The notes: a model not told the origin generated them from the sequence alone. A stretch of 32,000 bases of DNA from Candidatus Saccharimonadota bacterium (GCA_023898425.1 CP060222.1:930001-962000); one strand, 5' to 3'. Numbered from the stretch's first letter, positions 12,120-32,000 are shown. Numbers and translations: made by a program.

Positions 12120-12163
12120 TAAATTATTGCTAAATACTAAATAGCAAAAAACAAATATAAAGT

Positions 12164-12496: not shown

Positions 12497-12514
12497 TACT
12501 AAATACAAAAAGTT

Positions 12515-13069: not shown

Positions 13070-13115
13070 TTTTCATCACTACCAACTGTTGATAAGCATG
13101 TGTACAAATTTAAGC

Positions 13116-13141
13116 TGTGGATAATGTTTCATATGAAACAA
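13116..13141 (+). repeat. 26-bp direct repeat, copy 2
   Basis: A perfect copy of 13044-13069, with starts 72 bp apart. Confidence 0.9.
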
Positions 13142-13590
13142 AAGTTTATATACAAACTTCACGTATTCAGAGCTGGGTTGGTTTTCATATCACATCTACA
13201 AGCGGGTCTTGTTTTCTTTATCAACCGAAATACTGGGTTGTAATCAATCTTATGGATATATGTGTTTGTATTCCCAATCTTTGTTTGTTTGAATATTCGT
13301 TTAAGTTGCTGGATATCAAAAAAAAATAGAACGACCAGACTCGAGTGTTGAGTCTGGCCGTGAGGTGATCATGAAGCGTTGGTAGAACCGATGCCTCAAT
13401 TGCGCTGAGCACGTTCCGTGAGTGGAGGTGCGGCTGTGAGTTCTAGAAGTGTATAACAAGGAGAATAATTGTCAACAAATATACAGTGTGTCTTTGCATA
13501 TAATATTGTACGACGCTAGTAAACTGTGCTAAATAGAGCGAAATTTTTATGAATGGTTAAAAATACTATATAATAGATATATCTTTAACT

Positions 13591-14505: not shown

Positions 14506-14506
14506 T

Positions 14507-15412
14507 ATGTTTCACACGCGTTCATTATTTGCATTGATTGTATCGTTTAGCTTTTTATTGGTCATGCCTACAAAGTCTCATGCGCTTACCGTGGGCCCTG
14601 CGATTACAGATATTTCGCTTGATGCAGGGATGGTAACTACTACCAATATCGTTGTGGGTAATAATGACGCAATTTACAAAACATTTGATTTTTCTACGGA
14701 AACATTTGAAGCTGATGGTGATAAGGGTCAATCACGTTTTTTAGGAAAGACTGGCGCTGCCAACTGGTTTATTATGGATGCATCGGTAACCTTGCAGCCA
14801 GGTGAAAATAGAAAAGTACCCATCTCTCTACGTGTTCCTCAAGATGTCACGCCTGGGAGTTATCAAGTTGTTGTTTTTATAACAGAGCGTGGTTCTACCG
14901 AGTCTGGAGTAACAAATCTACAGAGAATCGGTGTCTTATTTTTTCTAATGGTACAAGGTGATACGAATGTTGTTTGGAGTGAGCCAGAGTTTCAGCAAGT
15001 ATTTTCTCAGGTTGTTAGCTTTGGAAATACTTTTCGTGTGGGATTAGAAAATAAGGGTAATACCTACGGTGTACCTTCGGGGACTATTGAGATTGCTTCG
15101 CTCTTTGGCACTTCAAAAAAAATTTCACTTAATCCTCAGCAGGTTCGCGTATTGCCAGGTAGTAAACGGTCGTATGTCGTTGGTTTTGGTGATACTCGTG
15201 CACCTAAAACGTTTGTCGAGCGTATAAAGCAAGAGTGGACGCATTTTGCTATTGGTCCCTATACCGCTAAAATGCAATTAGACGGCTATCCTGAGGTTCT
15301 TGAAACGTCATTTATTGTTTTGCCAACAGCGCTCATAAGTATTTTTACCGGTATCCTTCTATTGTTATTGGTTGTTATTACCTGGGCAAAATACGTGAGA
15401 CGTACTGTTTGA
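14507..15412 (+). CDS. secreted protein with a C-terminal transmembrane anchor; two beta-sandwich-like halves reminiscent of DUF916/DUF3324 cell-surface proteins
   Basis: 301-aa ORF starting 1 nt after the previous stop. It has a signal peptide (FALIVSFSFLLVMPTKSHA). Patterns include VTLQPGENRKVPISLRVPQDVTPGSYQVVVFI and VLPGSKRSYVV ... IGPYTAKMQL. The C-terminal TM segment is LISIFTGILLLLLVVITW followed by KYVRR. The family resemblance is from memory of sequence patterns, not a search. Confidence 0.75.
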   Translation: MFHTRSLFALIVSFSFLLVMPTKSHALTVGPAITDISLDAGMVTTTNIVVGNNDAIYKTFDFSTETFEADGDKGQSRFLGKTGAANWFIMDASVTLQPGENRKVPISLRVPQDVTPGSYQVVVFITERGSTESGVTNLQRIGVLFFLMVQGDTNVVWSEPEFQQVFSQVVSFGNTFRVGLENKGNTYGVPSGTIEIASLFGTSKKISLNPQQVRVLPGSKRSYVVGFGDTRAPKTFVERIKQEWTHFAIGPYTAKMQLDGYPEVLETSFIVLPTALISIFTGILLLLLVVITWAKYVRRTV

Positions 15413-15466
15413 TCAGGTATCAATCCATAAAGAGTTGTCTCAAGTCTTGATGGATGGTTACCCGAT

Positions 15467-18400
15467 ATGAAACATACTTTTTTTCGCTCATTACTGAGCT
15501 CTTTATTGTTACTTGTATTGTCTATTGGCAATGCGACTCCTGTTTTTGCTGCGCAACTCACAGGACGTAGTGATGTAATGACGCGCCAAGCGCCTGCGAT
15601 TGGCTCAGATCATGAGATTCGTTTTATCACGCCTACGGGTGTTGATGCCCCAACGGATACGATCACTTTGCAATTCGCAAGTGACTTTGATCTCACGGGT
15701 ATTACCGCGGCGGACATAGACCTACTTCATGGTCCTATTACCGGCCTTGAAATATCCGAAACGATTGCTGCTGCCGCGGCTGCTGGTGTTTGGGGTGCTG
15801 GCGTTAGTGGTCAAACCATTACTCTTACGGCGCCAACAAATGCAGCAATTGGAGAAATTACCGCAACTCATATCGTAACGATTCGAATCGGAAACAATGC
15901 TGGTGGTGCAAATCAGATCATCAACCCTGGCCCAGGAGCGGGTGGTGCTCCAAGAACCATGTGGATTGCCGGAACATTTGGCGATACAGGAATTATTGAA
16001 ATCCCATTTGCTCAACCTACAAATAATGATGCGATCGCTATAACAGCAACCGTTGGTGCTGTTATTGGCGGCGGTGGAGGCGGCGGTGGAGGGTGTGTTG
16101 GTATTGCCTGCGGTGATACTCAAGGGCCGATTATTTCGAATATTCGCGTTGTAAATATTACGTCGTCAACAGCAATGGTATTGTGGGATACAGACGAGCC
16201 AGCAACGACAGCGTTTTATTATGGATTAACCACAGGTTATACGGGAGGATTTATTGGTGATGGTACGCTAGTAACATCGCATAGTGTTTCGTTAACAAAT
16301 CTTACGCCTGAAACGCTTTATCATTTTCGTATTAATGGTACGGATGGGCTAGGTAATACTTCAGTAACCTTAGATAATACTTTTACAACGCTTGCGCTAG
16401 ATACACCTGTAGAAGCGCTTATTATAAGTAATGTACGCTCAATTCTTATTACGGATAGCACGGCTGCTATTACGTGGAATACAAATATCGCTGCAGATAG
16501 TAAAGTAGATTATGGAATTTCTGATGCCTACGGTTTTGTGGTTGTACGCGGGACACTTGATACCGTTCATCAATTGGATTTGAGTGGTCTCACTCCTAAT
16601 ACGACCTATCATTTTCGAGTCACATCAGAGACGGGGTTATCTAACGCTGTAACGGGAGATTTTATTTTTCAAACACTTGCCGATACAAACCCACCAGCGA
16701 ACCCACAAAATTTTGTTGCTGTAGGAGATTTTCTCCAAAATACCCTTCAATGGGTTAATCCTAATGTAGGCGATTTTTCTCATGTAAGAATTCTTGCGAG
16801 AACAGATAGATATCCGAATAATCCAAATGATGGCGTTTTAGTCTATCAAGGTAATAATCAAAATGCGATTCATAATGGTTTGGTTGCAGGGCAAGTCTAT
16901 TACTATGCGAACTTTGCCTATGATTTGAGTGGTAATCGTTCGTCAGGCGCTTTAGCTCAAGCGACACCGTTTGGTTTAACTGAAACGCCAACCAGTACGC
17001 CGCCTTTACCAACAAATCCTCCAGTCACTGATCCAGGTACTAGTCCTGGAGGTGAGAATCCTACAACAGGCGCCGTAACATCAACGCCAGAAGTACCTAC
17101 CGTTACTACCACCGAACCAGGAACGGATATTACAGATCCAGAAAAGCCAGAAATAACTGAGCCTCCAGTACAACCACCGATTCAGCCACCAGTACGCGAT
17201 ATTGTTATTACGCCAGTATATACTCTTGGTAATGGCTCAGTTGTTTTGGTGCCAAATACCAAGAACGAGATCAATACAGTGCCTGGTCCTGCGATTACGG
17301 TAGTTGTTCGATCAGAAGAGGTGCCAGGTAATCCGGAGACAGCAACGATTCTCGTGGGTAATGATCGATATCTATTAACAAAGCTACCAAACGGTGATTG
17401 GACGGCGAGCTTTGTTCCTGATCGTTCGGGTCAAATGCCTGCGCAAATTACGTTTGGTTATGATGATGGTTCTATCGCTCAAGCAACCACAACGATCATT
17501 ACTGGCGTGCCTGGGCAAGTTATTGAGCGTGATATCCCATTTATCGGGCCTGCGCGCATGGTCGAAGGTGTTCGTATAACCGTTTATCAAAAAGTAGATG
17601 GTGAGTGGATGCAATGGTCGGGTGCTATTACAGGACAAGAACATCCATTCAAGACAAAAGCTGATGGTCTTTGGGGTTTTGTTGTACAAAATGGAGAGTA
17701 TCGCGTTCTTTTTGAAAAAGAAGGATATGATACTGAGGAGAAGATCGTTACCGTTACCAATAACCTGCTTGGTTATCAGGTAGAGATAAACAAACCATTA
17801 CCGGTAGATGTGAATATTATCGGAATCATTACTACAGCTGTTGCGATAGCAAATATCGCGACAGTAGCAAGTCTTTTAAACTATCTTTGGTATCTCTTAA
17901 CGCAGCCATTTCTCATTTTCGGTGCACGTAAGCGAAAAAAGTGGGGTGTCGTCTATAATTCTATTACGAAACAAGGTATTGATTTGGTTGCCGTTCGACT
18001 TGTGCATGCAAAAACAGGTCTAACCTTACAAACGAGAGTAACGGATGAAAAAGGAAGATACTTTTTTCATGTAAAACCTGGTCAATATAAGGTTGTTGCG
18101 GTAAAGGCGGGGTACGTATTTCCGAGTGTCATAGTTAAAGATGTTAAAGAAGACGATGAGTATCTTGATGTTTATCATTCCGAAGAGGTTGCTGTTGAAG
18201 CAGAAGCAGACCTCACGATGAATATCCCAATGGATCCAAACAATAAAGAGGAAACACCGGCCAAAGTTCTCTTTAAGAGTTTCTTGCGTAAGATGCAAGG
18301 ATTTGTCGGTGCCTTATCACTGATTATTACCGGTATAGCCCTCATCCTTGAGCCTGGTTGGATATTGTTAGGGTTATTTTTGTTCCAGCTCGCAACGTAT

Positions 18401-18712
18401 CTCTTGTTTAAAAAGCTTATTGCAAGTCGTAAGCCAAAAAATTGGGGTATTGTCTCTGATGTTGATAATAAGCATCCATTAGAGCGTGTAGTGATGCGTA
18501 TCTATGACAAAAAATACAATAAGTTATTAGAAACACAGGTTACAGATGGCCGTGGGCGTTATGGATTCTTAGCTACGAAGAATACCTACTTTATAACGGC
18601 TGATAAGCCTGGCTATGATCGCTTTACTTCTGATGATATCGATCTTACAAAAGCAAAAGAGCTTGCTGTAGAGAAACCTGTTAAGCTAAAAAAGAAAAAT
18701 ATCCAACAGTAA
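15467..18712 (+). CDS. large multidomain envelope protein: signal peptide, two FN3-like repeats, Pro/Thr linker, carboxypeptidase-regulatory-like domains interleaved with TM segments
   Basis: 1081-aa ORF with a signal peptide (LLLLVLSIGNATPVFA). It contains a Gly8 run. There are two repeats of the type ISN(I/V)R...ITxSTAxxxWxTxxxAxxxxxYG...LTPxTxYHFR. The PT-rich linker lies around aa 505-575. Three units of the type TDxxGRYxF...G.Y...A.K.GY resemble CarboxypepD_reg. Hydrophobic segments lie around aa 790-830 and 955-1000. Confidence 0.85.
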   Translation: MKHTFFRSLLSSLLLLVLSIGNATPVFAAQLTGRSDVMTRQAPAIGSDHEIRFITPTGVDAPTDTITLQFASDFDLTGITAADIDLLHGPITGLEISETIAAAAAAGVWGAGVSGQTITLTAPTNAAIGEITATHIVTIRIGNNAGGANQIINPGPGAGGAPRTMWIAGTFGDTGIIEIPFAQPTNNDAIAITATVGAVIGGGGGGGGGCVGIACGDTQGPIISNIRVVNITSSTAMVLWDTDEPATTAFYYGLTTGYTGGFIGDGTLVTSHSVSLTNLTPETLYHFRINGTDGLGNTSVTLDNTFTTLALDTPVEALIISNVRSILITDSTAAITWNTNIAADSKVDYGISDAYGFVVVRGTLDTVHQLDLSGLTPNTTYHFRVTSETGLSNAVTGDFIFQTLADTNPPANPQNFVAVGDFLQNTLQWVNPNVGDFSHVRILARTDRYPNNPNDGVLVYQGNNQNAIHNGLVAGQVYYYANFAYDLSGNRSSGALAQATPFGLTETPTSTPPLPTNPPVTDPGTSPGGENPTTGAVTSTPEVPTVTTTEPGTDITDPEKPEITEPPVQPPIQPPVRDIVITPVYTLGNGSVVLVPNTKNEINTVPGPAITVVVRSEEVPGNPETATILVGNDRYLLTKLPNGDWTASFVPDRSGQMPAQITFGYDDGSIAQATTTIITGVPGQVIERDIPFIGPARMVEGVRITVYQKVDGEWMQWSGAITGQEHPFKTKADGLWGFVVQNGEYRVLFEKEGYDTEEKIVTVTNNLLGYQVEINKPLPVDVNIIGIITTAVAIANIATVASLLNYLWYLLTQPFLIFGARKRKKWGVVYNSITKQGIDLVAVRLVHAKTGLTLQTRVTDEKGRYFFHVKPGQYKVVAVKAGYVFPSVIVKDVKEDDEYLDVYHSEEVAVEAEADLTMNIPMDPNNKEETPAKVLFKSFLRKMQGFVGALSLIITGIALILEPGWILLGLFLFQLATYLLFKKLIASRKPKNWGIVSDVDNKHPLERVVMRIYDKKYNKLLETQVTDGRGRYGFLATKNTYFITADKPGYDRFTSDDIDLTKAKELAVEKPVKLKKKNIQQ

Positions 18713-18790
18713 TAACAAAGGAGTGAACAAAAAGTTTTCCACTCGACATCACAGAATATCCACAATTTGTACACAATTATACGTTTTTAA

Positions 18791-18818
18791 AAAATCCGCT
18801 TATCATAGCGGATTTTTG
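18791..18818 (+). terminator. rho-independent terminator separating the 3-gene operon from the giant gene
   Basis: aaaatccgct tatcat agcggatttttg. Confidence 0.6.
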
Positions 18819-18868
18819 TTATACGAGACCGCTTTTCCTAAAAAAGAATAGAATAAATACATATAGAT

Positions 18869-21800
18869 ATGCACAAGTTAGCAACGTACTTTTTAGAGGG
18901 AGTAAAATCCGTACTCATCGGTTCTATTGTTTTTATCGTTGCGTCAATAATTTTAGCGCCACCCTCTCACGCCGCCCCCGGCGTCCGTGCTAATGTCACC
19001 TACCAAGCTCGTCTCATGGATGCCTCAGGCTATCCAGTGGTAGATGGTGTCTATCAAATAGAGTTTAGTCTCTATGATGCAGCTGTAGCAGGCAATCGTC
19101 TTTGGTCAGCTAGTGGTACTACAGCTGTCCCTTTGCCTGTTAATGTCACCGTTCAAGATGGTCTCTTTACCGTTCTTCTTGGTGATGGTGTTACTCAACT
19201 CCCATTTACTGATATTGATTGGAACTCAGACAGCCTCTATCTCGGTGTAACTATTGGAGCCGATGGAGAAATGAGTCCTCGTAGACCTATTACAGCCGTC
19301 CCTCAAGCCATTAACTCCGCTCAACTTGGCGGAATGAGTCCTTCTAGTACCGATACCTACGGTGGAGAATCACAATTCACCATCACTCAAGCCTCAACAA
19401 CGGCAGCCACTTCAACCAGAAGTGCTTTAGATGTGAGATCCTATGGCGCAAGTGCAGCAAATGACTTTGCTTTTAGAGCTCTCACCAATGCAGGTACGCC
19501 AGCATTTACTATTACCTCTCAAGGCGTTGTATCAAGCACGAATCTTATCGTTGCTGGTCAGAATGTTTGTTTAGCCGATGGGACGGATTGTTTGCCAGGG
19601 GGTATTGAGTCTGACACCCTTCTCTCCGTTACTAACCGAGGCTCTGTTGCTACAGCAACCCTCACCCTTCTTGGAGGAGCTATTTCTAATACCGTAAACG
19701 TTACAGATACAGCAACGATCGCAAATGCTGTTGTTACGAGTACTCTCACGGTTTCTGGGACAATCTCATCAAATCTTCTTCCAACCACTGACCTTACCTA
19801 TTCTCTTGGTACACCATCTCTACGTTGGAATGGCAGTTTCGGCAATGTGACCATCCTTAATGGCACAACGACCAATGCCACCTCAACGAATTTCTTTGCT
19901 GCGAATGCAGCCTTAGGTTCTTTGATCGCAAACTCCGGCAATATCACAAGTCTTCTTGGTACCAACGCGACCTTTACGAGTGTTACATCAACCAACTTCT
20001 TCGCTTCTCTCGTATCTTCAACGCAAATTATCGTGAATGGCTTTGATGTTTGTACGAGTGATGGCGTGAACTGTCCTGCCGGTACTGGATCATTGCAGGA
20101 TGCTTATGATGGAGGAAGGGCGATTTCATTAAACGATGGTCATATTGAGTTAACTTCGGTTACAGGCACATCAGCCGATGTATTTGCTGACAATCTTGGA
20201 GCTACATTTACGAGAATGATTGGTGGTGGTGTTGCAGGTGTTACAACCACGGGTTTTGATATTCTTGGTTATGATGATGGTTTTGAACGAGGAGTAGTTC
20301 TTTCATTTAGTTTGGATCGTGATGGAATATCAGCGCTTTCGGGCGAAAGCTATTTAAATAGCACCAGCACGGCTAATATTCGCTTTAACGCTGGAGAATT
20401 TTCACAATACTTAGAGCTCAGTAATAATACTTCTTCTTTGTATTTGGCTAACGACTATATTGATTTAGCTATTAATAACGGTTCTGATGCTAAAGCGAAT
20501 ATGTTTGTAGGACCAGACGGAGTTTTCTACTTTTCTGCACAGGGGTCAAATGGTTTTTTTGATCAAACAGGATATGAATTTTATAATGATGTATCTGCCG
20601 CGTCAGTAATGCAGATCATATCTCAAAATGGCGGTAATGGCATTTGGGTTGGTAGTGACAATGATCCTAATACACAAAGTTATTTCCCTGGAGCTATAAG
20701 TGATTTACTTTTTAGACCAAATACAACAGGCGGTCCTGGTACACAACTCTATGTAAATACTGACGGTACTGATACCGGTTGGACGGGTATTGCTACGGTA
20801 GACATGTTAAGCGGTGGGTTGACTGCTACAACACTTTCGCGCGTAGGAACATCTACAAGTCCTCTTGGGGTTGCTTATACAATGGACGTACAAGGTTCAC
20901 TTCTCTTTTCAGTACACAATACCTATTTTGCGAATACGCATGATTGGAAGCTTTGGGATGTGTCCAATAAAGATGTTCCTGTTCAAGTATATGCGACTGG
21001 AAGTAGCGCATTAAACTATGTAAATTCTGGTAAATTAGCAGGTGATCGTTTGTATACGGTAGACACAACTTCTACAAAACTTTCAGTATTTGATATCTCT
21101 AATCCTTCGTTGCCAATTTTACTTGGATCGATGACAGGTACATCAACGCCTCTTTCACTTGAAAAAAAACTCGTTATTGAAGGTTCAAATGTCTACATGG
21201 CATCTGAAATTGGTTTAACGATTATTAATGCTAAAAATCCTGCGGCGATGTCAGTAACGAGTTTTACGAGTGTAGTGACTCCAGGCGGTGGTATTACGCC
21301 TGTACGCATGGATGCGCAGGATGGTTATGTATATCTTTCGACTAAGTTTGGTGTTTCGCAACCAACGTCAACCATTACGATTATCGACGCGCGTAACATC
21401 AATTCACCCTCCGTTGTAGATAGCTTTGAAGTTCCTGCAGCAACTTTTCGTGGGGATGATATAGCGGTTTCTAATGAAAAACTCTATATCTATATCTCTT
21501 CAGGAGGTAGCGAGTATATTCGCCGCTACTCTATTGCAGACCGTGAAAACCCAGTGTTAGAGACAACGTTCCCTGTAAACAATGGCACGGGTGAATTCTT
21601 TGTGAATAAAGGGTTGGTTATTACACGAGACGCTTCATCTATCATGTTATACAACGAAGATGGGCTTCTCATCGATTCGTCTTCAAGCTCGCATTCGGGA
21701 GCAATTACATACGAAGGTGGCCAAATTTATGCTAGTAACTTTGAAGGACCGACGATTAAGCTTGCTGTTTATGATATTGGAGGCGTTAATGTAAATGCCT

Positions 21801-24800
21801 TAAATGTTGCAAATGCGAGCATTGGTTCTGCTACGGTAGCGAATAATTTAACGGTTAACGGCAGATCCAGCTTTGTGAATGGTATTACGGTGCAGGGTCG
21901 TGGTGTTTGTTTGTCGGATGGTACTAACTGTCCTGCCTCTGGTTCAGGCTCCCTTCAGTCTGCATACGATCTTGGCCGAACTGTTACAACAACAAATGGT
22001 GGCATAACACTTCTTTCGCCTACCGTTGGCGGAACGAACCTATATCCAACGGCAGACTTAGATCTAAAAGAAATTATTGGCGGTGGATTTGAGTATGATC
22101 CAAATCAAGGCTTTGGGATTGCTCAATACAGCTCAACAACAGCTGCGGTTTCTAGTGGTACGATGATGTATTTTTCAACAGATCGTAGTAATCCTTTTGG
22201 TCCTTCTGCTACATCAACCTTTATTATATCCGACCTTGAGATTGGAGCGATGTATCTTGGTAATCCGCTAACAGATAACGTACTTTCATTGTATAACGAT
22301 TCTTCAAGTCTAGTATTTGATAACTTTATTACACTTGATGCGCCAACGTTAAACTTCATCGGTGATCTAGATTTACAAGGCACCGTTACAAGTGATATTA
22401 GTCCATTCTCAAGTCTTTCATTTGATCTTGGTATTTCTACTGCTAGATGGAGATTTGGTTATTTTGGAACGGTAAGCAGCACGGCGGTGCAAGCTGGTTC
22501 GGTTACTGTGGGCGGTCAAAGTGTTTGTTTAGCAAATGGTACAAATTGTTTAGCGAATGGGTCACTTCAAAGCGCTTATAATATTGGTAAATCAATTACT
22601 TTAAACAGCGGTCATATCGAATTAACCTCAGTAACGGGCACAAGCTCAGATTTTCTTACGGAGGATTTTGGTGCTACAGCTACTCGAATGATTGGTGGTG
22701 GTATTGCCGGCGTTACGACCACCGGTTTTGATATCATAGGTTATGATACGGGGAACGGTAGAGGCGTAGAGCTCACATTTAGCTCAGATCGTGATGGTGT
22801 GAATGCGCCAGCTGGTCAAAGCTATCTGTACGGTGCAAGCACGGCAAGAATCTCTTATTTAACAGATAAGTTTGATAACCCATCGTTACTTCTCAGCACA
22901 AACACATCTACGATTACGGTTGGTAATGACTATCTTTATTTCTCAGTAGTGGATAATGGCACTAGCGCTGCAAACATGAGCATGGATATCGATGGCCTTT
23001 TCTCGCTCGAAACACAGGTAGGAGGTGGTGTGGATGATGTGGCACCAATTAGGTTCAGTAACGGTGTCGATATTGGAGCGATGATTGAGCTACGCTCTCA
23101 ATTAACAAACGCCTCAATATGGCTTATTGATGATCAAGATCCAAATACGCTTGGTTACACGCCTTCCGCTATTAGTGACTTAATGTTCCGTTCAAATTCT
23201 ACGGCGGGTCCAGGCTCCCAACTTTATGTAAATACTGATGGTACAGATACAGGTTGGACGGGTATTGCTACGGTAGATATGTTAAGCAGCCTCACGCTAC
23301 AGGATGTTTACAATGCAGGCACATCTATTAGTACAGGCTTTGGTCCGGTGGTGCTAAACGCTTCAACCACAGGCCCTGATTTATTCCCTGCTTTTCCATG
23401 GTTAGATTCGTATCGCACTCTTGTTTCTAAAGGTTTTGATGATGACGGTATCGCCTTTAATCATGGCTCTGGTACATGGGACAATCAACATTATATCGAG
23501 TTCTTTAATGATGTATCTTTGCCGCCAATCACTTCTGTTTCTAGCTCATATATTATGGGTGATACTATGGCAGGAACACTTGATTTGGTTGGAGGAAGAG
23601 GTGTTAATATAGGGCTAGGAAATGCAACAACGACATTCAATACAAATGTCATCGTTGCCCCAGGAAAAGGTGTTGCGAGTAACTTCTCACCGTTTTTAAG
23701 CGATACCTATTCAATAGGAGATGCAAGCAAACGATGGGACCGAGGTTTCTTTAATGCGGTAAGTTCAACGCTCCTCGATTTAGTTAGCGGTTCAATTGCT
23801 ATTGGTAATTATGGCGCGTCATCTACGCCTGTACTCTCAGCTTCTCACAACCAAGGTGGTATTGATGGCTTCGATGTCCTTATGCTTAATGATATTGGAG
23901 TGACAGGTACGGCGCTCTTTACAACCGCTGATCGAAGTAAGGGGTTACCATTCCAGAATAACGGTCTAACTAAGACAACTTCTACTGCATTATACAGTTA
24001 TTATACAGATGTTTCTTCAACGTTGATTTTGCTAAACAAGGCAAATGACAATGCATCAATGATTAACATGACGGATAGCAATATTGATATTTCTGCTGCC
24101 GTAGGCACTTCTACAGATGGTCTTATAACTATGAGAGGAGAGTCTATTGGTCCTGCTGTCCGTGTTTCAAACAATAGCTCTTCGTTAGATCAAAGTTGGG
24201 ATCTATTTGCTCGTCGTTTATTAGTGGGTGAAGCTGTAAGCGCGACGGGTACGGCTGATTATAATATGGTGATCAGTTATACAAATGCAGGGCTTTGTTT
24301 GGACGATGTAACCAACGGAGCAACCTGTCCAACATCTGTTGCAGGATCAATCTTTGCAGACGGTACCATCACTTCAGATGCGTTCGATCTTGCCGAAATG
24401 TACAATGTCTCCGGTACGGCCTCAGCTGGTGATCTCGTCAAAATCACAAAAACAGCTACGGCTACCGTAGAAATCACAAATGGTATCGAGTATGACAATG
24501 ACACCATTGGTGTTATCTCCACAAAACCAGGTTTCTTGCTTGGTTGGGAAGGTGACGTTCAAGTAGCTCTTGCTGGTCGAGTCCCTACAAAAGTTTCTGT
24601 AGGAAACGGTACGATTGTAGCGGGTGATCGACTCACTACCTCACCAATCCCAGGAGTAGCCATGAAAGCAACGCGTCCTGGTCAAATCATTGGTATTGCT
24701 CTTGAAGATGCTAATGTTAGCGGAGTAATCGAAGTCTTTATTCAGCCAGGCTTTGATATGAGCTCAGCCTTTGCTGCCGATGGCTCAATGACGCTAGTAA

Positions 24801-25786
24801 ATGAATATGGCTCTACAACATTTTCCGTAAGTGCCGAAGGTGATGCATTCTTCTTAGGCGGTGTTAGTGCAACAAGCTTTACGACACATGCGGCATTTGA
24901 TCTCGCGGAACAATACGTTTCGGCAGATACGCTAGAGCCGGGTGACATTGTTGTTGCAAGTCCAAGCGGTAATCTCATGATTCAGCGTTCTGCTGATGCA
25001 AATACCTTGCCTATGGGTATTATCTCAACAGCTCCAGGGTTTACACTTGGCGCTAAGTCAGAAGGATCATATCCTGTAGCTCTTGCTGGCCGTGTTCCTA
25101 CCAAGGTCTCTACAATTAATGGTTCTATTAAGGCTGGAGACTTGCTCGCACCAACGGATATTCCTGGCGTTGCAGGTAAAGCGGTAGAAGATGGCCCTGT
25201 AGTGGGCATTGCTCTTGAGAGTTATGAAGGTGCTGATACAGGAATGATTGAAGTCTTTGTAAAATCCGTTTGGTATTCGAAGCCTAATCAAACACCAGCG
25301 CAGATTATCGAAAATAACACCTATGTAACAAACATTTCTGAATCTTCGCCAAGTGTTGTTCGTCGCGGCCTCGCCTCTATTGAGTCTGGTGCCGTTAAAG
25401 TCCATGTCTCGTTTGAAACGTTGCTTGGCTACCCATTTGTACAGGTAACACCGCGCGGTCTCATTGTGGGATCATGGTCTACGGATAATTATAGCGATAC
25501 AGGATTTGATATCATCTTAGAGCAACCGCAAACATTTGATGTGATCTTTGGTTGGGAGGCAAGTGCGCTTAGTGGCTCAACCATGATGATGATGTCTGAT
25601 GGAACGAGCTTGCTTGTTGATCCAACGACTGGTCAGGTTATTGTGCAGGAGCCTGAAGAAGAGGTGGTTGATGATACTGAAATTATCACCGATCCTGATG
25701 TAGACGCTCCACAGGTAGATGTAGTAAGTGATCCAACAGTAGTATCTGAAGAAGTTCCTGTGCCAGAGTCTGCTCCTGAAGAGTAA
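18869..25786 (+). CDS. giant (2305 aa) tail-fibre-like surface protein with an N-terminal signal/anchor, LVIVD-like beta-propeller region and tandem C-terminal modules
   Basis: One uninterrupted 6.9-kb ORF. The N-terminal hydrophobic segment is followed by SHA-AP. A fibre-like N-module is present (VTYQARLMDASGYPVVDG...YLGVTIG...RRPITAVPQAINSAQLGG). The motif VC(L/T)xDG(T/V)xC recurs four times, and (D/S)(L/I)Gxx(S/T)x(R/K)RW recurs three times. The stretch aa ~655-1010 looks like LVIVD repeats (LSVFDISNPSLPILLGSM, TITIIDARNINSPSVVDSF). Two ~125-aa modules are of the type FDLAExY...ALAGRVPTKVS...IEVF. The tail is acidic. Confidence 0.9.
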   Translation: MHKLATYFLEGVKSVLIGSIVFIVASIILAPPSHAAPGVRANVTYQARLMDASGYPVVDGVYQIEFSLYDAAVAGNRLWSASGTTAVPLPVNVTVQDGLFTVLLGDGVTQLPFTDIDWNSDSLYLGVTIGADGEMSPRRPITAVPQAINSAQLGGMSPSSTDTYGGESQFTITQASTTAATSTRSALDVRSYGASAANDFAFRALTNAGTPAFTITSQGVVSSTNLIVAGQNVCLADGTDCLPGGIESDTLLSVTNRGSVATATLTLLGGAISNTVNVTDTATIANAVVTSTLTVSGTISSNLLPTTDLTYSLGTPSLRWNGSFGNVTILNGTTTNATSTNFFAANAALGSLIANSGNITSLLGTNATFTSVTSTNFFASLVSSTQIIVNGFDVCTSDGVNCPAGTGSLQDAYDGGRAISLNDGHIELTSVTGTSADVFADNLGATFTRMIGGGVAGVTTTGFDILGYDDGFERGVVLSFSLDRDGISALSGESYLNSTSTANIRFNAGEFSQYLELSNNTSSLYLANDYIDLAINNGSDAKANMFVGPDGVFYFSAQGSNGFFDQTGYEFYNDVSAASVMQIISQNGGNGIWVGSDNDPNTQSYFPGAISDLLFRPNTTGGPGTQLYVNTDGTDTGWTGIATVDMLSGGLTATTLSRVGTSTSPLGVAYTMDVQGSLLFSVHNTYFANTHDWKLWDVSNKDVPVQVYATGSSALNYVNSGKLAGDRLYTVDTTSTKLSVFDISNPSLPILLGSMTGTSTPLSLEKKLVIEGSNVYMASEIGLTIINAKNPAAMSVTSFTSVVTPGGGITPVRMDAQDGYVYLSTKFGVSQPTSTITIIDARNINSPSVVDSFEVPAATFRGDDIAVSNEKLYIYISSGGSEYIRRYSIADRENPVLETTFPVNNGTGEFFVNKGLVITRDASSIMLYNEDGLLIDSSSSSHSGAITYEGGQIYASNFEGPTIKLAVYDIGGVNVNALNVANASIGSATVANNLTVNGRSSFVNGITVQGRGVCLSDGTNCPASGSGSLQSAYDLGRTVTTTNGGITLLSPTVGGTNLYPTADLDLKEIIGGGFEYDPNQGFGIAQYSSTTAAVSSGTMMYFSTDRSNPFGPSATSTFIISDLEIGAMYLGNPLTDNVLSLYNDSSSLVFDNFITLDAPTLNFIGDLDLQGTVTSDISPFSSLSFDLGISTARWRFGYFGTVSSTAVQAGSVTVGGQSVCLANGTNCLANGSLQSAYNIGKSITLNSGHIELTSVTGTSSDFLTEDFGATATRMIGGGIAGVTTTGFDIIGYDTGNGRGVELTFSSDRDGVNAPAGQSYLYGASTARISYLTDKFDNPSLLLSTNTSTITVGNDYLYFSVVDNGTSAANMSMDIDGLFSLETQVGGGVDDVAPIRFSNGVDIGAMIELRSQLTNASIWLIDDQDPNTLGYTPSAISDLMFRSNSTAGPGSQLYVNTDGTDTGWTGIATVDMLSSLTLQDVYNAGTSISTGFGPVVLNASTTGPDLFPAFPWLDSYRTLVSKGFDDDGIAFNHGSGTWDNQHYIEFFNDVSLPPITSVSSSYIMGDTMAGTLDLVGGRGVNIGLGNATTTFNTNVIVAPGKGVASNFSPFLSDTYSIGDASKRWDRGFFNAVSSTLLDLVSGSIAIGNYGASSTPVLSASHNQGGIDGFDVLMLNDIGVTGTALFTTADRSKGLPFQNNGLTKTTSTALYSYYTDVSSTLILLNKANDNASMINMTDSNIDISAAVGTSTDGLITMRGESIGPAVRVSNNSSSLDQSWDLFARRLLVGEAVSATGTADYNMVISYTNAGLCLDDVTNGATCPTSVAGSIFADGTITSDAFDLAEMYNVSGTASAGDLVKITKTATATVEITNGIEYDNDTIGVISTKPGFLLGWEGDVQVALAGRVPTKVSVGNGTIVAGDRLTTSPIPGVAMKATRPGQIIGIALEDANVSGVIEVFIQPGFDMSSAFAADGSMTLVNEYGSTTFSVSAEGDAFFLGGVSATSFTTHAAFDLAEQYVSADTLEPGDIVVASPSGNLMIQRSADANTLPMGIISTAPGFTLGAKSEGSYPVALAGRVPTKVSTINGSIKAGDLLAPTDIPGVAGKAVEDGPVVGIALESYEGADTGMIEVFVKSVWYSKPNQTPAQIIENNTYVTNISESSPSVVRRGLASIESGAVKVHVSFETLLGYPFVQVTPRGLIVGSWSTDNYSDTGFDIILEQPQTFDVIFGWEASALSGSTMMMMSDGTSLLVDPTTGQVIVQEPEEEVVDDTEIITDPDVDAPQVDVVSDPTVVSEEVPVPESAPEE
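18966..19955 (+). repeat. paralogous block 1 shared with 26206-27194 (about 0.99 kb, direct orientation)
   Basis: The base-by-base offset is 7239, changing by 1 at single-base indels. Flanking tracts are identical. A diverged patch (about 19190-19400 / 26430-26640) carries mostly synonymous changes. Confidence 0.9.
22511..24900 (+). repeat. paralogous block 2 shared with 27457-29845 (about 2.4 kb, direct orientation)
   Basis: The offset is 4946, then 4945 after a 1-bp deletion in the downstream copy. Long near-identical tracts are interrupted by a diverged patch (23645-23815 / 28590-28760). Divergence rises after about 24565 / 29510. Confidence 0.9.
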
Positions 25787-25819
25787 AAACAATAAACAGT
25801 TTATACACATTTTATCAAC

Positions 25820-25856
25820 AAGCCCCGTATGATGCGAAAAATGCACATACGGGGCT
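25820..25856 (+). terminator. terminator hairpin after the giant gene
   Basis: aagccccgtatg (25820-25831), a 13-nt loop, then catacggggctt (25845-25856), followed by tgttt. Confidence 0.6.
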
Positions 25857-26110
25857 TTGTTTAGCGAAATATTATAACTTGGCTCATCGATTAGTTAATC
25901 AAAGCTATAATAAAGATAACCATTTGCAGAGTCCTGAATCTCGTTGGGGAATGAGATTCTTGTGATGAGAAGTGGTCAGTATGAAAGATATTTTGTGGGG
26001 TCTGATGTCACTGAAATAATCAGTAACATAAGATAAATGGTCTACTCATAAAATAGAAAATTCCTACCAATATATTATTGGCGGTATTGTTTTTGATATT
26101 GACTACAGCG

Positions 26111-27088
26111 ATGGAGAGTAATCTCTATGAATATTTTGCAAAACGCAAAGCGCACGCTCTTTTTGCCGCAATACTATTTTGCGGTCTCCTTTTTTTCGAC
26201 CTCTGCTCACGCCGCCCCGGCGTCCGTGCTAATGTCACCTACCAAGCTCGTCTCATGGATGCCTCAGGCTATCCAGTGGTAGATGGTGTCTATCAAATAG
26301 AGTTTAGTCTCTATGATGCAGCTGTAGCAGGCAATCGTCTTTGGTCAGCTAGTGGTACTACAGCTGTCCCTTTGCCTGTTAATGTCACCGTTCAAGATGG
26401 TCTCTTTACCGTTCTTCTTGGTGATGGTGTTACTCAACTCCCATTTACCAATATTGATTGGAACTCAGACAGCCTCTATCTCGGTGTAACTATTGGAGCC
26501 GATGGAGAAATGAGTCCACGAAGACCCATTACAGCCGTTCCTCAAGCCATTAATTCTGCTCAACTTGGCGGAATGAGTCCATCTAGTACTGACACCTATG
26601 GTGGAGAATCACAATTCACCATCACTCAAGCTTCAACCACCGCAGCCACTTCAACCAGAAGTGCTTTAGATGTGAGATCCTATGGCGCAAGTGCAGCAAA
26701 TGACTTTGCTTTTAGAGCTCTCACCAATGCAGGTACGCCAGCATTTACTATTACCTCTCAAGGCGTTGTATCAAGCACGAATCTTATCGTTGCTGGTCAG
26801 AATGTTTGTTTAGCCGATGGGACGGATTGTTTGCCAGGGGGTATTGAGTCTGACACCCTTCTCTCCGTTACTAACCGAGGCTCTGTTGCTACAGCAACCC
26901 TCACCCTTCTTGGAGGAGCTATTTCTAATACCGTAAACGTTACAGATACAGCAACGATCGCAAATGCTGTTGTTACGAGTACTCTCACGGTTTCTGGGAC
27001 AATCCATCAAATCTTCTTCCAACCACTGACCTTACCTATTCTCTTGGTACACCATCTCTACGTTGGAATGGCAGTTTCGGCAATGTGA
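26111..27088 (+). pseudogene. fragment 1 of the disrupted tandem paralog of the giant fibre gene (own N-terminal leader + fibre N-module)
   Basis: The track ORF is 26078-27088 and the likely ATG is 26111 (MESNLYEYFAKRKAHALFAAILFCGLLFF). It matches the giant protein from PGVRANVTYQ to TLTVSGTI. A 1-bp deletion relative to 19766 (aatctcatc versus aatccatc at 27004/27005) then shifts the frame, and a stop follows at 27086-27088. Confidence 0.8.
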
Positions 27089-28029
27089 CCATCCTTAATG
27101 GCACAACGACCAATGCCACCTCAACGAATTTCTTTGCTGCGAATGCAGCCTTAGGTTCTTTGATCGCAAACTCCGGCAATATCACAAGTCTTCTTGCAAC
27201 AAATGCGACATTCACAAGCGTTACTTCAACGAATGGCTTCTTCTCAAGCCTTGTTGGCTCCACCTTTGCTGCTGGTTCAGCAACGGTTGGTACTTCAACC
27301 ATCGGTTTCGTGAATGTGACAGGCTCTCTTTTTGCTCCAAGTGGAACGATAACAGATCTTAATGGCTCTGGTCTCGTCTTCTCGAATGCAACCTTTACCA
27401 ATGCGACCGCAACAACCCTCTTTGCTTCTCTTGTTTCTTCCTCTCAAATATTCGTTGGTGGTCAGAGCGTCTGTTTAGCAAATGGTACAAATTGTTTAGC
27501 GGATGGGTCACTTCAAAGCGCTTATAATGCTGGTAAATCCATCACGTTAAACAGCGGTCATATCGAATTAACCTCAGTAACGGGCACAAGCTCAGATTTT
27601 CTTACGGAGGATTTTGGTGCTACAGCTACTCGAATGATTGGTGGTGGTATTGCCGGCGTTACGACCACCGGTTTTGATATCATAGGTTATGATACGGGGA
27701 ACGGTAGAGGCGTAGAGCTCACATTTAGCTCAGATCGTGATGGTGTGAATGCGCCAGCTGGTCAAAGCTATCTGTACGGTGCAAGCACGGCAAGAATCTC
27801 TTATTTAACAGATAAGTTTGATAACCCATCGTTACTTCTCAGCACAAACACATCTACGATTACGGTTGGTAATGACTATCTTTATTTCTCAGTAGTGGAT
27901 AATGGCACTAGCGCTGCAAACATGAGCATGGATATCGATGGCCTTTTCTCGCTCGAAACACAGGTAGGAGGTGGTGTGGATGATGTGGCACCAATTAGGT
28001 TCAGTAACGGTGTCGATATTGAGCGATGA
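27085..28029 (+). pseudogene. fragment 2 of the disrupted paralog
   Basis: The homologous frame is already open from about 27007 (SSNLLPTTDLTYSLG...). This fragment contains a 260-bp segment unique to this copy (27196-27456). It then rejoins the giant gene at its VGGQSVCLANGTNC module. It ends after a 1-bp deletion (tattggagcg versus tattgagcg at 28020/28021). Confidence 0.8.
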
Positions 28030-30029
28030 TTGAGCTACGCTCTCAATTAACAAACGCCTCAATATGGCTTATTGATGATCAAGATCCAAATACGCTTGGT
28101 TACACGCCTTCCGCTATTAGTGACTTAATGTTCCGTTCAAATTCTACGGCGGGTCCAGGCTCCCAACTTTATGTAAATACTGATGGTACAGATACAGGTT
28201 GGACGGGTATTGCTACGGTAGATATGTTAAGCAGCCTCACGCTACAGGATGTTTACAATGCAGGCACATCTATTAGTACAGGCTTTGGTCCGGTGGTGCT
28301 AAACGCTTCAACCACAGGCCCTGATTTATTCCCTGCTTTTCCATGGTTAGATTCGTATCGCACTCTTGTTTCTAAAGGTTTTGATGATGACGGTATCGCC
28401 TTTAATCATGGCTCTGGTACATGGGACAATCAACATTATATTGAGTTCTTTAATGATGTATCTTTGCCGCCAATCACTTCTGTTTCTAGCTCATATATTA
28501 TGGGTGATACTATGGCAGGAACACTTGATTTGGTTGGAGGAAGAGGTGTTAATATAGGGCTAGGAAATGCAACAACGACATTCAATACAAATATTATTGT
28601 AACCCCAGGAAAAGGTATTGCAAGTAATTTCTCACCGTTTTTAAATGATACCTATACTATAGGAGATGCTAGTAAACGTTGGAATCGAGGCTACTTTAAC
28701 GCTGTAAGTTCTACGCTTCTTGATTTAGTTAGTGGTTCAGTTGTTATTGGTAATTATGGCGCGTCATCTACGCCTGTGCTCTCAGCTTCTCACAACCAAG
28801 GTGGTATTGATGGCTTCGATGTCCTTATGCTTAATGATATTGGAGTGACAGGTACGGCGCTCTTTACAACCGCTGATCGAAGTAAGGGGTTACCATTCCA
28901 GAATAACGGTCTAACTAAGACAACTTCTACTGCATTATACAGTTATTATACAGATGTTTCTTCAACGTTGATTTTGCTAAACAAGGCAAATGACAATGCA
29001 TCAATGATTAACATGACGGATAGCAATATTGATATTTCTGCTGCCGTAGGCACTTCTACAGATGGTCTTATAACTATGAGAGGAGAGTCTATTGGTCCTG
29101 CTGTCCGTGTTTCAAACAATAGCTCTTCGTTAGATCAAAGTTGGGATCTATTTGCTCGTCGTTTATTAGTGGGTGAAGCTGTAAGCGCGACGGGTACGGC
29201 TGATTATAATATGGTGATCAGTTATACAAATGCAGGGCTTTGTTTGGACGATGTAACCAACGGAGCAACCTGTCCAACATCTGTTGCAGGATCAATCTTT
29301 GCAGACGGTACCATCACTTCAGATGCGTTCGATCTTGCCGAAATGTACAATGTCTCCGGTACGGCCTCAGCTGGTGATCTCGTCAAAATCACAAAAACAG
29401 CTACGGCTACCGTAGAAATCACAAATGGTATCGAGTATGACAATGACACCATTGGTGTTATCTCCACAAAACCAGGTTTCTTGCTTGGTTGGGAAGGTGA
29501 CGTTCAAGTAGCTCTCGCTGGTCGAGTCCCTACAAAAGTTTCTGTAGGAAACGGTACGATTGTAGCTGGTGATCGTCTCACAACCTCGCCGATTCCAGGT
29601 GTAGCAATGAAGGCAACGCGCCCTGGACAAATCATCGGTATTGCTCTCGAAGACGCTCATGTTAGCGGTGTAATCGAAGTCTTTATTCAGCCTGGCTTTG
29701 ATATGAGTTCTGCCTTTGCTGCGGATGGATCAATGACCCTTACAAATGAATACGGATCAACGACATTCTCTGTAAGTGCCGAAGGTGATGCGTTCTTCTT
29801 AGGCGGTGTTAGTGCAACAAGCTTTACGACGCATGCGGCATTTGATTTGGCTGAACGATATTCTTCGCCAGACAAGCTTGAGCCAGGAGACTTGGTAATG
29901 ATCAATGCAAAAGCGGATATGCAAATGGTACGTACCATGGATGAATCTTCGACGGCCGTTGGTATTATTTACTACTGCCCTGGATTTACCTTGGTGCTGC
30001 TACTGAGGGGACATTCCCGGTTGCCTTAG
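28026..30029 (+). pseudogene. fragment 3 of the disrupted paralog
   Basis: 667 aa, nearly identical to giant-protein residues of about 1405-2020. It ends after an apparent 1-bp deletion in ttggg (29991-29995), because the FTLGAATEGTFPVALAGRVPTKVST reading continues in another frame. Confidence 0.8.
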
Positions 30030-30037
30030 CGGGCCGC

Positions 30038-30670
30038 GTGCCAACCAAGGTGTCTACAATGAATGGCGCTATTGCTTCAGGTGATGCAATTATGGTGTCT
30101 TCTATACCTGGTGTTGGAGTAAAAGCTACTAATGAAGGGATGATTGTAGGGTATGCGTTAGAATCATTCGAAAAAGGTGATATTGGGATGATTGAAGTCT
30201 TTGTCCAACCAGGTTATTGGATGCCTGCGCAAAACAACGCGAAGAATCTTACTGCTGACGTAGCTACCCAATCAGGCGCGCAGCATCAAGGATTCGCTTT
30301 TATTGAGATGGAAGGCACTTCGGTACATGTCTCATATCCGAGTATTCTTGCTTACCCTGTACCTCAGGTGACGGCCCTAACTCATGTAAAGGGAGATTGG
30401 TGGTTAGATAAAATTACCGACGAAGGGTTTGATATTGTTCTTGAAACAAAGCAAGACGTAGATATTCGATTTGCCTGGCAGGTAAATCCAGCTCAAGTTG
30501 GTACGCTTCAGTATCATTCTGATGGCACCTACGGTGAAATTGATCCGCTAACAGGTAAATTAATTGTGATTGAAGAGGATCCTATCGAAGAACCTGTAGA
30601 TGATCCTGCAATAGACCAAATCGAAGAACCTATTGTACCAGAAGTCGTAGTTGAAGAGGTTGTTGAATAG
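30038..30670 (+). pseudogene. fragment 4 of the disrupted paralog (diverged C-terminal module and acidic tail)
   Basis: The homologous frame is open from 29993. The sequence (V)PTKVSTMNGAIASGDAI...MIEVFVQPG...GFDIVLE... parallels the giant protein C-terminus at lower identity. Confidence 0.8.
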
Positions 30671-30687
30671 CGATATTGATCTTAATT

Positions 30688-30714
30688 TAAAAAGCGCACA
30701 ATATGCGCTTTTTA
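30688..30714 (+). terminator. rho-independent terminator after the paralog
   Basis: aaaagcgca caata tgcgcttttt. Confidence 0.6.
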
Positions 30715-30730
30715 AATTGGCCTACGTATA

Positions 30731-30739
30731 TGCTATACT
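30731..30739 (+). promoter_or_regulatory. possible extended -10 promoter element (TGcTATACT)
   Basis: tgctatact at 30731-30739. I see no good -35 element. It lies 95 nt upstream of ATG 30834. Confidence 0.3.
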
Positions 30740-30833
30740 CCACGCATTACTATAAACGCCCTTTTGGTATGTCCAATATTTTTTCTACTATCCAACCCTC
30801 TCCTTCGGTCCAAACGCCTGAACCGGCAAAAAA

Positions 30834-31175
30834 ATGCCAGGTCTCGCGAAGTTTTTAAGTCGCTTTATTGACGGATGTTTGTACCTTTTGGTATTTGCGC
30901 TTCCGCTTATTGCTTGCCAAAGATTTACGGACGCCATTGATTTTAGCAAACAAAGCGTTTTAATCCCGGTTGTTGCTTTTATGCTAGTCGCTTGGATCGC
31001 AAAGGTTGTTGCGGAGCGCAAACTCGTCTTAACACGTCATTGGATGCATGTTGTTGTTGGGTTGTATGGTATCGGGTATTTATTGTCCGCGGCGTTTTCA
31101 CAGGATAGAGCCCTCTCTCGTTTTTTGGAGCTCCGGGGCAGGTTGTTTGGTCGTTTGCAACCGTTATTTCGTTGA
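30834..31175 (+). pseudogene. O-antigen-ligase-like polytopic membrane protein, N-terminal fragment (frame broken near 31110-31126)
   Basis: 113-aa ORF with hydrophobic helices (CLYLLVFALPLIA, VLIPVVAFMLVAWIAKV, VVVGLYGIGYLL). After SQDRA the sensible reading (PLSFFGAPGQVVWSFATVISLIALYFVV) continues in another frame. Confidence 0.55.
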
Positions 31176-32000
31176 TTGCTCTCTACTTTGTCGTTACACA
31201 TCAAGTACGTTCAACGCAAAAGCTTTATGATCTTCTCTTAGCTTATCTAGGAGGCTCTTTGTTTGTTGCTCTATTTGGGTTATTGCAGATTTTTGGCGTA
31301 CATCTCGTTGGTGGTGTTTTTCAAAACAATGGCATAAATACGGTCGGTACAGCATATTCGCTCGCCGCATATCTTGTTGTTCCGTTATTATTGTCCGCTG
31401 GACTCGCTTTTCATGGTTGCCGTAATAAAGTTTGTTTACTTGGTTCAAGTGGCACCGCAGGCAAAGTAGCAAGATTGATTGTATGGACGACGGGCATCGT
31501 ATCACTTGCATACATTCTATTGGTTGATTATTGGCTTACTTGGGCGATTATTTTGGTGGGTGCCATTACGATGGTCGTTATTGCTTTTGCACGTACCAGA
31601 AAAGTAACAAGCCCTGTTAAGCTCGTGATCCCAGGATTGCTTATCCTTCTCTCTGTTGTACTCCTTGCCTTTAAAGTACCTGTTTCATTAAATGTCGCTA
31701 GCGAAGTATCACCTTCGGCAACAGCATCTTATGCCATTGCAAAACAGGCTTTACGTGACAATGTTATCTTTGGCACAGGTCCTGGCACATGGATTTACGA
31801 TTATGCGAAATACCGTAATCAATTGGTAAACCTCTCGCCATTCTGGAATGTACGATTTGATCGTGGGTATTCTGCATTCATGACCTTGCTTGCTACAACA
31901 GGTATTGCTGGCATCTCGTTATGGCTTATTGTTATCTTGTCACTTGCAGTAAAAGCAGTCAGTAGGCTCTTTAAAAGAAAAAAAGATGATGATACGTGGT
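31109..32000 (+). pseudogene. O-antigen-ligase-like membrane protein, continuation in a second frame; runs off the right window edge
   Basis: My translation is open from 31109 to the window end. It shows multiple TM helices and the motif NVIFGTGPGTWIYDYAKYR, typical of Wzy/O-antigen-ligase-like proteins. It is absent from the ORF track because no stop lies inside the window. Confidence 0.6.

Follow-up and report, generated by a model that had tools for sequence, protein, structure and literature searches.

What is a gene that lies directly behind a close relative, shares long identical tracts with it, and is split by frameshifts as assembled? The question is raised by a 32,000-nucleotide stretch of DNA deposited as Candidatus Saccharimonadota bacterium (GCA_023898425.1 CP060222.1:930001-962000; hereafter the window), in which a very large gene for a secreted protein (the giant) is followed on the same strand by a second, frame-broken paralog (the copy). 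The stretch is chromosomal DNA of a candidate phyla radiation (CPR)/Patescibacteria bacterium and lies close to the replication origin. An earlier note on it, made by eye, had left the copy as a decaying duplicate, a silent donor of sequence for the giant or an assembly artifact. The evidence below leans toward the following answer, which we consider probable, if not strongly so: the two genes are tandem paralogs under gene conversion, and the frameshifts are mostly errors or very recent.

The mosaic of copy and giant

The giant protein comprises, in order, a signal peptide, a fiber-like head, module X1, an LVIVD/beta-propeller region, module X2 and a tail with two Peptidase_G2-like domains. 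Comparison of the copy with the giant by blastn and global alignments gives two colinear blocks: copy 26216-27233 corresponds to giant 18977-19995, and copy 27454-29899 to giant 22508-24954, while past about 29900 the DNA similarity fades. Within these blocks, identical or nearly identical tracts alternate with divergent patches (Table 1), which reproduces by computation the alternation that the earlier note had described, its coordinates proving right to within a few bases. Its further statement that the patches differ mostly by synonymous third-position changes is borne out as well, since 105 codons differ, 85 of them synonymously, and of the 115 differing bases 91 fall at third codon positions. 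Calling the copy a second version of the giant is accurate as to homology but not as to colinearity: giant 19996-22507, the 2.5 kb with the LVIVD/beta-propeller part, has no counterpart in it, and a private 220-bp junction stands there.

In a permutation test with a GENECONV-type criterion, the same number of differences was placed at random in 20,000 trials. The longest identical run in block 2 measures 737 bp, against a permuted mean of 132 bp and a maximum of 354 bp in the 20,000 permutations; the identical-run test for block 1 gives P=5e-5. The identical tracts (runs of 233-1046 bp) are thus significantly longer than the overall divergence predicts, as expected of gene conversion, and tract pattern and permutation test together support the proposal that the copy is homogenized by recombination with the giant, its conversion partner. 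Elsewhere the signal-peptide regions are unalignable, the junction is private and the tails stand at a synonymous divergence (dS) of 1.14, which points to two paralogs of old divergence in one genome, an arrangement seen in this one assembly and backed by synteny in Uhrbacteria.

The copy would then belong, as a genuine second gene, to a tandem family that encodes giant secreted fiber/beta-propeller proteins, at a locus conserved in ABY1-class CPR bacteria (relatives among Uhrbacteria and Magasanikbacteria). Signal peptide, 220-bp junction and tail (dS above 1 against the giant tail) would be those of an old paralog in its own right. Its head and module X2 would carry at least four tracts of 0.2-1 kb in which homologous, RecA-type conversion with the neighboring giant has recently replaced the sequence. 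Exchange would also reach the giant, and the kilobase repeats would allow unequal crossover fusing the giant head to the copy tail. Most probably the frameshifts would be errors in the consensus that a hybrid Nanopore/Illumina assembly produced from mixed strains; at most they would be lesions of very recent date, and the copy would thus be an expressed gene, now or until very recently, rather than a dedicated silent cassette. The mosaic, its synonymous bias, the pattern among strains and the restored ORF are direct results; we infer the recombination mechanism, as we do the direction of exchange in any one patch; recA lies outside the window, and the RecA-type mechanism is predicted only.

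Could an assembler have made the mosaic? The window sequence very probably comes from a Nanopore plus Illumina assembly by Unicycler, and probably, though this is not proven, represents the metagenome-assembled genome (MAG) HK-STAS-PATE-2, a member of class ABY1 with 1111 genes and about 0.19% relative abundance (Liu et al., 2021, PMC8518188). The MAGs of that study were obtained with Flye, recruitment of long reads at ≥70% and short reads at ≥80% identity, and Unicycler hybrid assembly (Liu et al., 2021, PMC8518188). Reads accepted at ≥70-80% identity may mix several strains, and assembling them might yield a false mosaic by collapsed repeat nodes, cross-mapped polishing or a strain haplotype misplaced in tandem, and no independent assembly in the collections searched has the giant-type tail, the copy head or the copy junction. 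Such an origin is nevertheless very improbable given the private head, junction and tail and the intergenic region with a strong terminator between the genes. The multi-paralog arrangement is conserved in Uhrbacteria, sister strains carry copy-type alleles, and an unrelated Illumina assembly (L004) branches at the same tract boundary; moreover, collapsing may hide a few single-nucleotide differences but cannot create a contrast of 0% with 8-15%. The artifact alternative of the earlier note has therefore to be taken seriously where the indels are concerned, though not as an account of the entire mosaic.

Programmed hypervariation, by a diversity-generating retroelement (DGR) or by slippage phase variation at simple repeats, would be another source of patchy change. 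CPR genomes are rich in DGRs that target surface proteins, and some indels of the copy fall in short runs (C5, G3, CTCT). The substitution spectrum is symmetric, however, with adenine in the copy at 29 and in the giant at 28 of 116 sites, mostly third positions, and no reverse transcriptase-like open reading frame (ORF) occurs in the window; a DGR is excluded by this spectrum, which shows no adenine specificity. Slipped-strand phase variation is likewise rejected, since no indel lies in a run of more than 5 nt, which falls short of what classical contingency loci need, and two lie in no run at all. The probability left to hypervariation is vanishingly small.

Table 1. Coordinates of the copy, its parts and the neighboring features of the window
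Feature	Position in window	Position in giant	Strand	Basis or remark
Copy (second paralog)	26127-30670		+	repaired ORF
Signal peptide of the copy, MNILQNAKRTLFLPQYYFAVSFFSTSAHA, cleaved before AP	26127-26213		+	three-frame translation; 5′ alignment
Indel 1: C4 where the giant has C5, at the signal-peptide cleavage site	26215-26218		+	alignment
Identical tract 1, 233 bp	26216-26448	18977-19209	+	alignment
Divergent patch, 7.8%; third codon position in 14 of 15 differences	26449-26641		+	alignment
Identical tract 2, 555 bp, with indel 2 (T deleted at 27005)	26642-27196	19403-19958	+	
Divergent patch, 27%	27197-27233		+	alignment
Copy-specific junction, 220 bp, about 73 amino acids (aa), fiber-like, S/T/N/G-rich	27234-27453	in place of 19996-22507	+	
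Divergent patch, 11.8%	27454-27546		+	alignment
Identical tract 3, 1046 bp, with one substitution (28442) and indel 3 (G deleted at 28021)	27547-28592	22601-23647	+	
Divergent patch, 15.1%; 28 differences, 19 at third codon positions	28593-28778		+	alignment
Identical tract 4, 737 bp	28779-29515	23834-24570	+	alignment
Divergent patch, 13.3%	29516-29899		+	alignment
Copy-type C-terminal tail, old paralog of the giant tail (dS 1.14)	29900-30670		+	dN/dS comparison
Cluster of three indels	29971-29995		+	comparison with orthologous tails of other strains
Terminator-like palindromic hairpin 3′ of the copy, AAAAAGCGCACAATATGCGCTTTTT	30682-30720		+	dG -18.5 kcal/mol, z -4.6
Giant gene, 2305 aa, USN52386.1 (H6759_05240)	18869-25786		+	ORF list; protein cluster member P0059
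Strong terminator-like hairpin, then UUUGUUU, directly 3′ of the giant gene	25817-25861		+	RNA fold
fn3/CarboxypepD_reg protein gene, 1081 aa	15467-18712			
Downstream multi-pass membrane/TPR gene	30770-32000		+	interrupted in window; 821 aa and intact in L002-L004

Reading frame and selection

The copy had been thought to begin at 26078, 290 bp past the giant. Its real start is ATG 26127, which lies in the frame neighboring that of the TTG-started ORF at 26078, is preceded by a Shine-Dalgarno (SD)-like GGAG 10 nt upstream, and opens a signal peptide of its own. This signal peptide is not homologous to that of the giant; the two regions are unalignable, and homology begins only at the cleavage site, where SAHA/AP of the copy matches PSHA/AP of the giant. 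A scan for sigma-70 and terminator consensus sites upstream of the copy returned fewer sites than shuffled sequences did and is uninformative for a promoter.

As assembled, the copy is split into ORFs at 26078-27088, 27085-28029, 28026-30029 and 30038-30670, plus a detached signal-peptide ORF; by exact cluster look-up, a 667-aa ORF is USN52389.1 (H6759_05255). Three 1-bp deletions had been recognized earlier, and all three hold, but the total is six small indels, the additional ones lying at 26215-26218, 29971 and 29979. At 26215-26218, deletion of one base from C5 disconnects the true start and signal peptide from the rest of the ORF. The deletions at 27005 and 28021 fall outside long homopolymers and, as the earlier note had observed, inside otherwise identical tracts (of 555 and 1046 bp, respectively); the k-mers for their alleles are GGGACAATCCATCAAATC versus GGGACAATCTCATCAAATC at 27005 and ATATTGAGCGATG versus ATATTGGAGCGATG at 28021. 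Toward the 3′ end, an added A at 29971 and a base lost at 29979 jointly change STA to YYC, turning the conserved GIISTAPGF into GIIYYCPGF, and GGG reduced to GG at 29993-29994 makes the third frameshift. Six single-base edits yield one stop-free ORF of 1515 codons with a canonical signal peptide.

The frame is thus disrupted in the assembled sequence, by six indels, as in a pseudogene. Signs of relaxed selection are absent: over the final 1158 nt of the repaired ORF (roughly 29516-30670), the copy tail compared with the orthologous allele of another strain (strain B) gives dS 0.55, nonsynonymous divergence (dN) 0.046 and dN/dS 0.08, that is, strong purifying selection, and no stop occurs within the 1515 repaired codons. 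Small indels are the only lesions, with no nonsense codon among them. With patch differences mostly synonymous and the tail so constrained, the view that the copy is a formerly selected coding paralog is upheld, whether selection acted formerly or acts currently.

The downstream membrane/TPR gene is also affected, by a 1-bp deletion at about 30828 and a 2-bp insertion (CT) at about 31111-31112, and selection on it is not relaxed (dN/dS 0.04; 0.046 past its frameshift). Eight indels therefore fall within 5 kb (26215-31112) and span two adjacent constrained genes; three of them lie within 25 bp, and the identical tracts hold two indels against at most two substitutions. Neither the copy nor the downstream gene has a homopolymer of at least eight A/T or six C/G, and over 14 kb upstream (8764-22987) there are no coding indels relative to L001, a contig of another strain. 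A window-wide problem of sequencing quality is rejected on these two grounds. The deletion at about 30828 falls between a conserved 22-aa N-terminal extension and the 'MPGLAKF' of the membrane/TPR gene.

Natural decay would account for the broken frame if the copy were a genuine, recently inactivated pseudogene, with six real indels, occasional conversion to keep its likeness to the giant, and the membrane/TPR gene decaying too. Surface-protein paralogs are often inactivated; the deposited sequence contains the indels, which are confined to the copy and the downstream gene, the giant (6.9 kb) and the 14 kb compared with L001 having none; and the assembly pipeline is Illumina-graph based, with a low indel rate on mock data. 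Decay of this kind would, however, be expected to leave nonsense codons and a raised dN/dS, neither of which is seen (0.08 and 0.04). Bacterial mutation spectra favor substitutions over indels several-fold, whereas the lesions here are indels only, three of them within 25 bp, and two adjacent conserved genes are hit together, the downstream one being intact in three sister contigs and in Uhrbacteria. A true pseudogene is accordingly a possibility that we hold to be doubtful. The indel-only, locally clustered pattern resembles errors left in a consensus more than it resembles natural decay, and the chances somewhat favor indels that are mostly artifacts or very recent. More generally, indel clusters in repeated, strain-variable surface genes of hybrid long-read MAGs can mimic pseudogenes or 'silent cassettes', which calls for caution.

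Probable exchange between the paralogs, seen across strains

Contig L001 (KC662) spans polA through the giant up to window position 23006, and L002 (KC582), L003 (KC662) and L004 (PLR08) share 99.65-99.98% identity with one another. Five further members of the 90% protein cluster, from other assemblies, carry the C-terminal end; the tail is copy-type in all five and giant-type in none. JGI metagenome contigs hold no match to the giant-type tail and only 34%-identical relatives of the copy junction, a scan of GTDB representative genomes confirmed no relative of the copy tail, and the repaired copy, used as query in a second protein search, brought up no further close cluster. The contig index returned nothing on exact look-up of the giant protein, the 667-aa ORF or P0059.

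Differences between strains in the giant are restricted to what it shares with the copy. Against the window giant, L001 differs at 39 of 1517 copy-shared bp and at 0 of 2621 giant-unique bp (Fisher P=7e-18), and L002 at 28 of 2834 and 0 of 2513, respectively (P=2e-8). These differences come as patches of 8-16% divergence. The cross-strain comparison that the earlier note had proposed thus extends the exchange to the giant itself, all of whose strain-level variation lies inside paralog-shared modules.

Allele sharing, taken patch by patch, fits no single tree, with the caveat that the short-read contigs are perhaps chimeric. At 19694-19858, in tract 2, the window giant equals the window copy, while L001 and L002 agree on another allele (14 sites); at 19300-19402 the giant-like gene of L002 has the window-copy alleles at 10 of 10 sites, L001 being giant-type; and 22879-23006 holds 21 differences private to L001. 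The simplest reading of these sequences is that diverged paralog sequence may have been transferred repeatedly into and out of the giant. Transfer into the giant is implied by the strain comparison, and the copy of other strains is needed to polarize the direction.

The L001-private patch coincides with the last 128 bp of that contig (14012-14139, window 22879-23006), where 21 sites (16%) differ from the window giant, the copy and L002, all three identical there. It is a third allele, located at a contig break, and possibly belongs to another strain's second paralog.

The contig ends are informative too. Base 1 of L004, an Illumina assembly, is the first base after the last giant/copy difference (22601/27547), at the left edge of tract 3. 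A start at this tract boundary marks a branch of the de Bruijn graph and therefore two converging upstream contexts in that independent Illumina data set. Contig ends of other strains fall inside shared blocks.

In L002-L004, the corresponding gene (P0062/L002) keeps to giant-type sequence across the central region and X2 as far as 24570, beyond which it passes to the copy-type tail. The switch, at copy positions of about 29516-29900, sits at the 3′ end of the 737-bp tract, and the intact 821-aa membrane/TPR gene comes next. Unequal crossover between the paralogs would give this giant-head/copy-tail chimera, as may a short-read assembler's jump over a perfect repeat. The expectation that the repeats make chimeric genes thus has its counterpart in the contigs of other strains, which encode such a fusion, an assembly jump being a possible alternative.

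From 29516 to 32000, the window stands at dS 0.4-0.55 from L002, L003 and L004, compared with about 1% DNA divergence upstream; the jump occurs exactly at the end of the 737-bp tract and extends to the window end. This looks like an allelic replacement of the tail and the downstream gene by recombination with a distant lineage.

Variation confined to copy-homologous segments also invites comparison with dedicated silent cassettes, in which the copy would be an untranslatable archive, copied unidirectionally into the expressed giant as in the vls, pilS and MgPar systems. As in vlsE/vls of Borrelia, pilE/pilS of Neisseria and MgPar of Mycoplasma genitalium, an expression gene lies beside a same-strand homolog that is not translatable as assembled, variable patches alternate with conserved stretches, and the expressed gene varies only in donor-homologous segments. 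The identical tracts flank divergent patches and could guide recombination, and copy-type alleles do occur in one strain's giant-like gene. In vls systems, arrayed cassettes that are truncated and have no promoter match the central part of vlsE at about 90% identity, and conversion runs in one direction only (PMC11499132). Here, in contrast, the 32-kb window contains a single homologous donor and no array, and this one paralog is full-length and mostly 100% identical to its recipient, which leaves little diversity to donate. Its anatomy is complete rather than truncated, with a start, an SD-like GGAG, its own signal peptide, a complete tail, terminator-like hairpins on both sides and small indels as its only lesions. 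Strong purifying selection acts at the protein level, even in the private tail that donation to the giant at the DNA level cannot use, and the paralogs of the homologous Uhrbacteria locus are intact. The silent-cassette possibility raised by the earlier note finds no support in these observations, and a dedicated cassette is quite improbable. We also find it improbable that the frameshifts are real and that the copy is a silenced archive for segmental conversion, varying the host- or phage-facing giant fiber of an episymbiotic CPR bacterium. If true, this would be an antigenic-variation-like system outside pathogens, with head/tail chimeras formed by unequal crossover in sister strains.

Several points weigh against tandem paralogs under conversion with largely spurious frameshifts. 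The other strains are represented by short-read MAG contigs broken inside repeats, and false joins between two paralogs in the assembly may account for part of the patch pattern and of the chimera; patchy divergence might also arise by homologous recombination among strains that live together, and the fn3 gene likewise has clustered differences. The giant-type tail, the copy signal peptide and the copy junction were found in no other assembly of the collections searched, and the two-gene arrangement therefore rests on this one assembly together with the Uhrbacteria synteny. A Unicycler sequence normally derives from the Illumina graph, and on mock genomes the authors' pipeline left 0.2-1.8 indels per 100 kb (Liu et al., 2021, PMC8518188). 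Given this low rate and the abundance of about 0.19%, eight indels in 5 kb need a special cause. The equally repeated X2 module of the giant and its private tail are frameshift-free, so that an artifact must start exactly where the copy starts. The attribution of the eight indels to error, read from the assembled sequence, stays provisional.

Related loci, known systems and neighboring features

The reading as tandem paralogs has a close parallel in Uhrbacteria, where L005 (JAIOPK010000017.1; K8R04_04100/04105/04110) encodes three intact paralogs of 2131, 1817 and 3089 aa between the same flanks, a fn3/CarboxypepD_reg gene upstream (1097 aa, syntenic with 15467-18712) and a TPR protein (823 aa). 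These paralogs, members of the same family, share their N-terminal (about 0.7 kb) and C-terminal (about 1.2-1.4 kb) ends and differ in the middle. Unlike the window genes, all three are intact and their shared ends are 77-91% identical, with no identical run longer than 92 bp; homogenization in the window genome is therefore far more recent or intense.

From their sequences, the giant family appears to consist of tail-fiber-like secreted giants. The giant has a weak LVIVD match in Pfam; beyond this, Pfam searches with the window tail, head and X2 gave nothing, a PDB sequence search found none, and no tail match of the window proteins to PF11962 or PF13884 was obtained at E≤1. Relatives carry LVIVD/beta-propeller domains together with Peptidase_G2 or Peptidase_S74: P0025 and P0030 pass the PF11962 (Peptidase_G2) threshold and P0034 that of PF13884 (Peptidase_S74). 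The two tail domains in the window ('DLAE.Y ... GRVPTKV ... IEVF') align to the PF11962 region of P0025 at 35-48% identity (E 1e-18 to 3e-34). By way of these relatives, the aligned tail domains resemble the intramolecular-chaperone domains (PF11962, PF13884) of phage tailspike and tail-fiber proteins. The window proteins differ from tailspikes in being cellular, with signal peptides and without a phage context, and in having no Pfam tail match of their own.

RecA-dependent conversion of paralogs is known from tufA/tufB of Salmonella and from the babA/babB and sabA/sabB adhesins of Helicobacter pylori. As in those systems, the paralogs here form a mosaic within one genome, differ between strains in patches and may give chimeras by recombination, and both partners are real genes. 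In contrast to them, the two genes reach giant size (1515 and 2305 codons) and lie in direct tandem, their build is modular, one lacks a 2.5-kb module, the host is an uncultured CPR bacterium, and the role of RecA is predicted. A literature search found no description of such paralog conversion in CPR bacteria, and old tandem paralogs under recurrent gene conversion, a known mechanism, are apparently unreported there. The locus would thus add a CPR example of a known process, in which tandem paralogs for surface proteins evolve in concert and are reshuffled by recombination.

The prevailing view has CPR/Patescibacteria living attached to host cells. In such bacteria, giant surface proteins are the leading candidates for a part in recognizing the host and for a target of pressure from phages or host defense, and the evolution of the genes is barely known. 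The locus offers a concrete, testable case of tandem giant paralogs exchanging kilobase tracts, with repeats that may generate head/tail chimeras.

Internal repetition is seen in the giant as well. At the DNA level, parts of module X2 match module X1 with 77-83% identity, a 'C-x6-C ... GSLQxAY' motif opens both, and this older duplication places 20129-20275 and 20693-20812 against 22601-23290 (and copy 27547-28232). With X1 and X2 duplicated inside the giant, the gene family is one made of reshuffled modules.

The window further contains dnaA (883-2286), dnaN, a PBP1-type gene, polA and holA, followed by a surface-protein locus with, in order, two small secreted proteins, the fn3/CarboxypepD_reg protein, the giant, the copy and the membrane/TPR protein. 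The hairpin behind the giant (dG -26.3 kcal/mol, z = -6.2, none of 200 shuffles equally stable) leads us to infer separate transcription units for giant and copy.

The fn3 gene is a strain-variable hotspot in its own right: window 15000-18000 differs from L001 at about 64 positions in 3 kb, compared with 3 in 12645-14999. A run of nine glycines (VIGGGGGGGGGCVGIACG) lies in its protein at 16080-16110. Downstream of rpsT, window 12168-12644 and L001 3402-3776 are a non-homologous replacement between strains, in which a 110-aa ORF in the window (12164-12496) faces an unrelated stretch of L001 with a 164-aa ORF, between flanks that are 98-99% identical.

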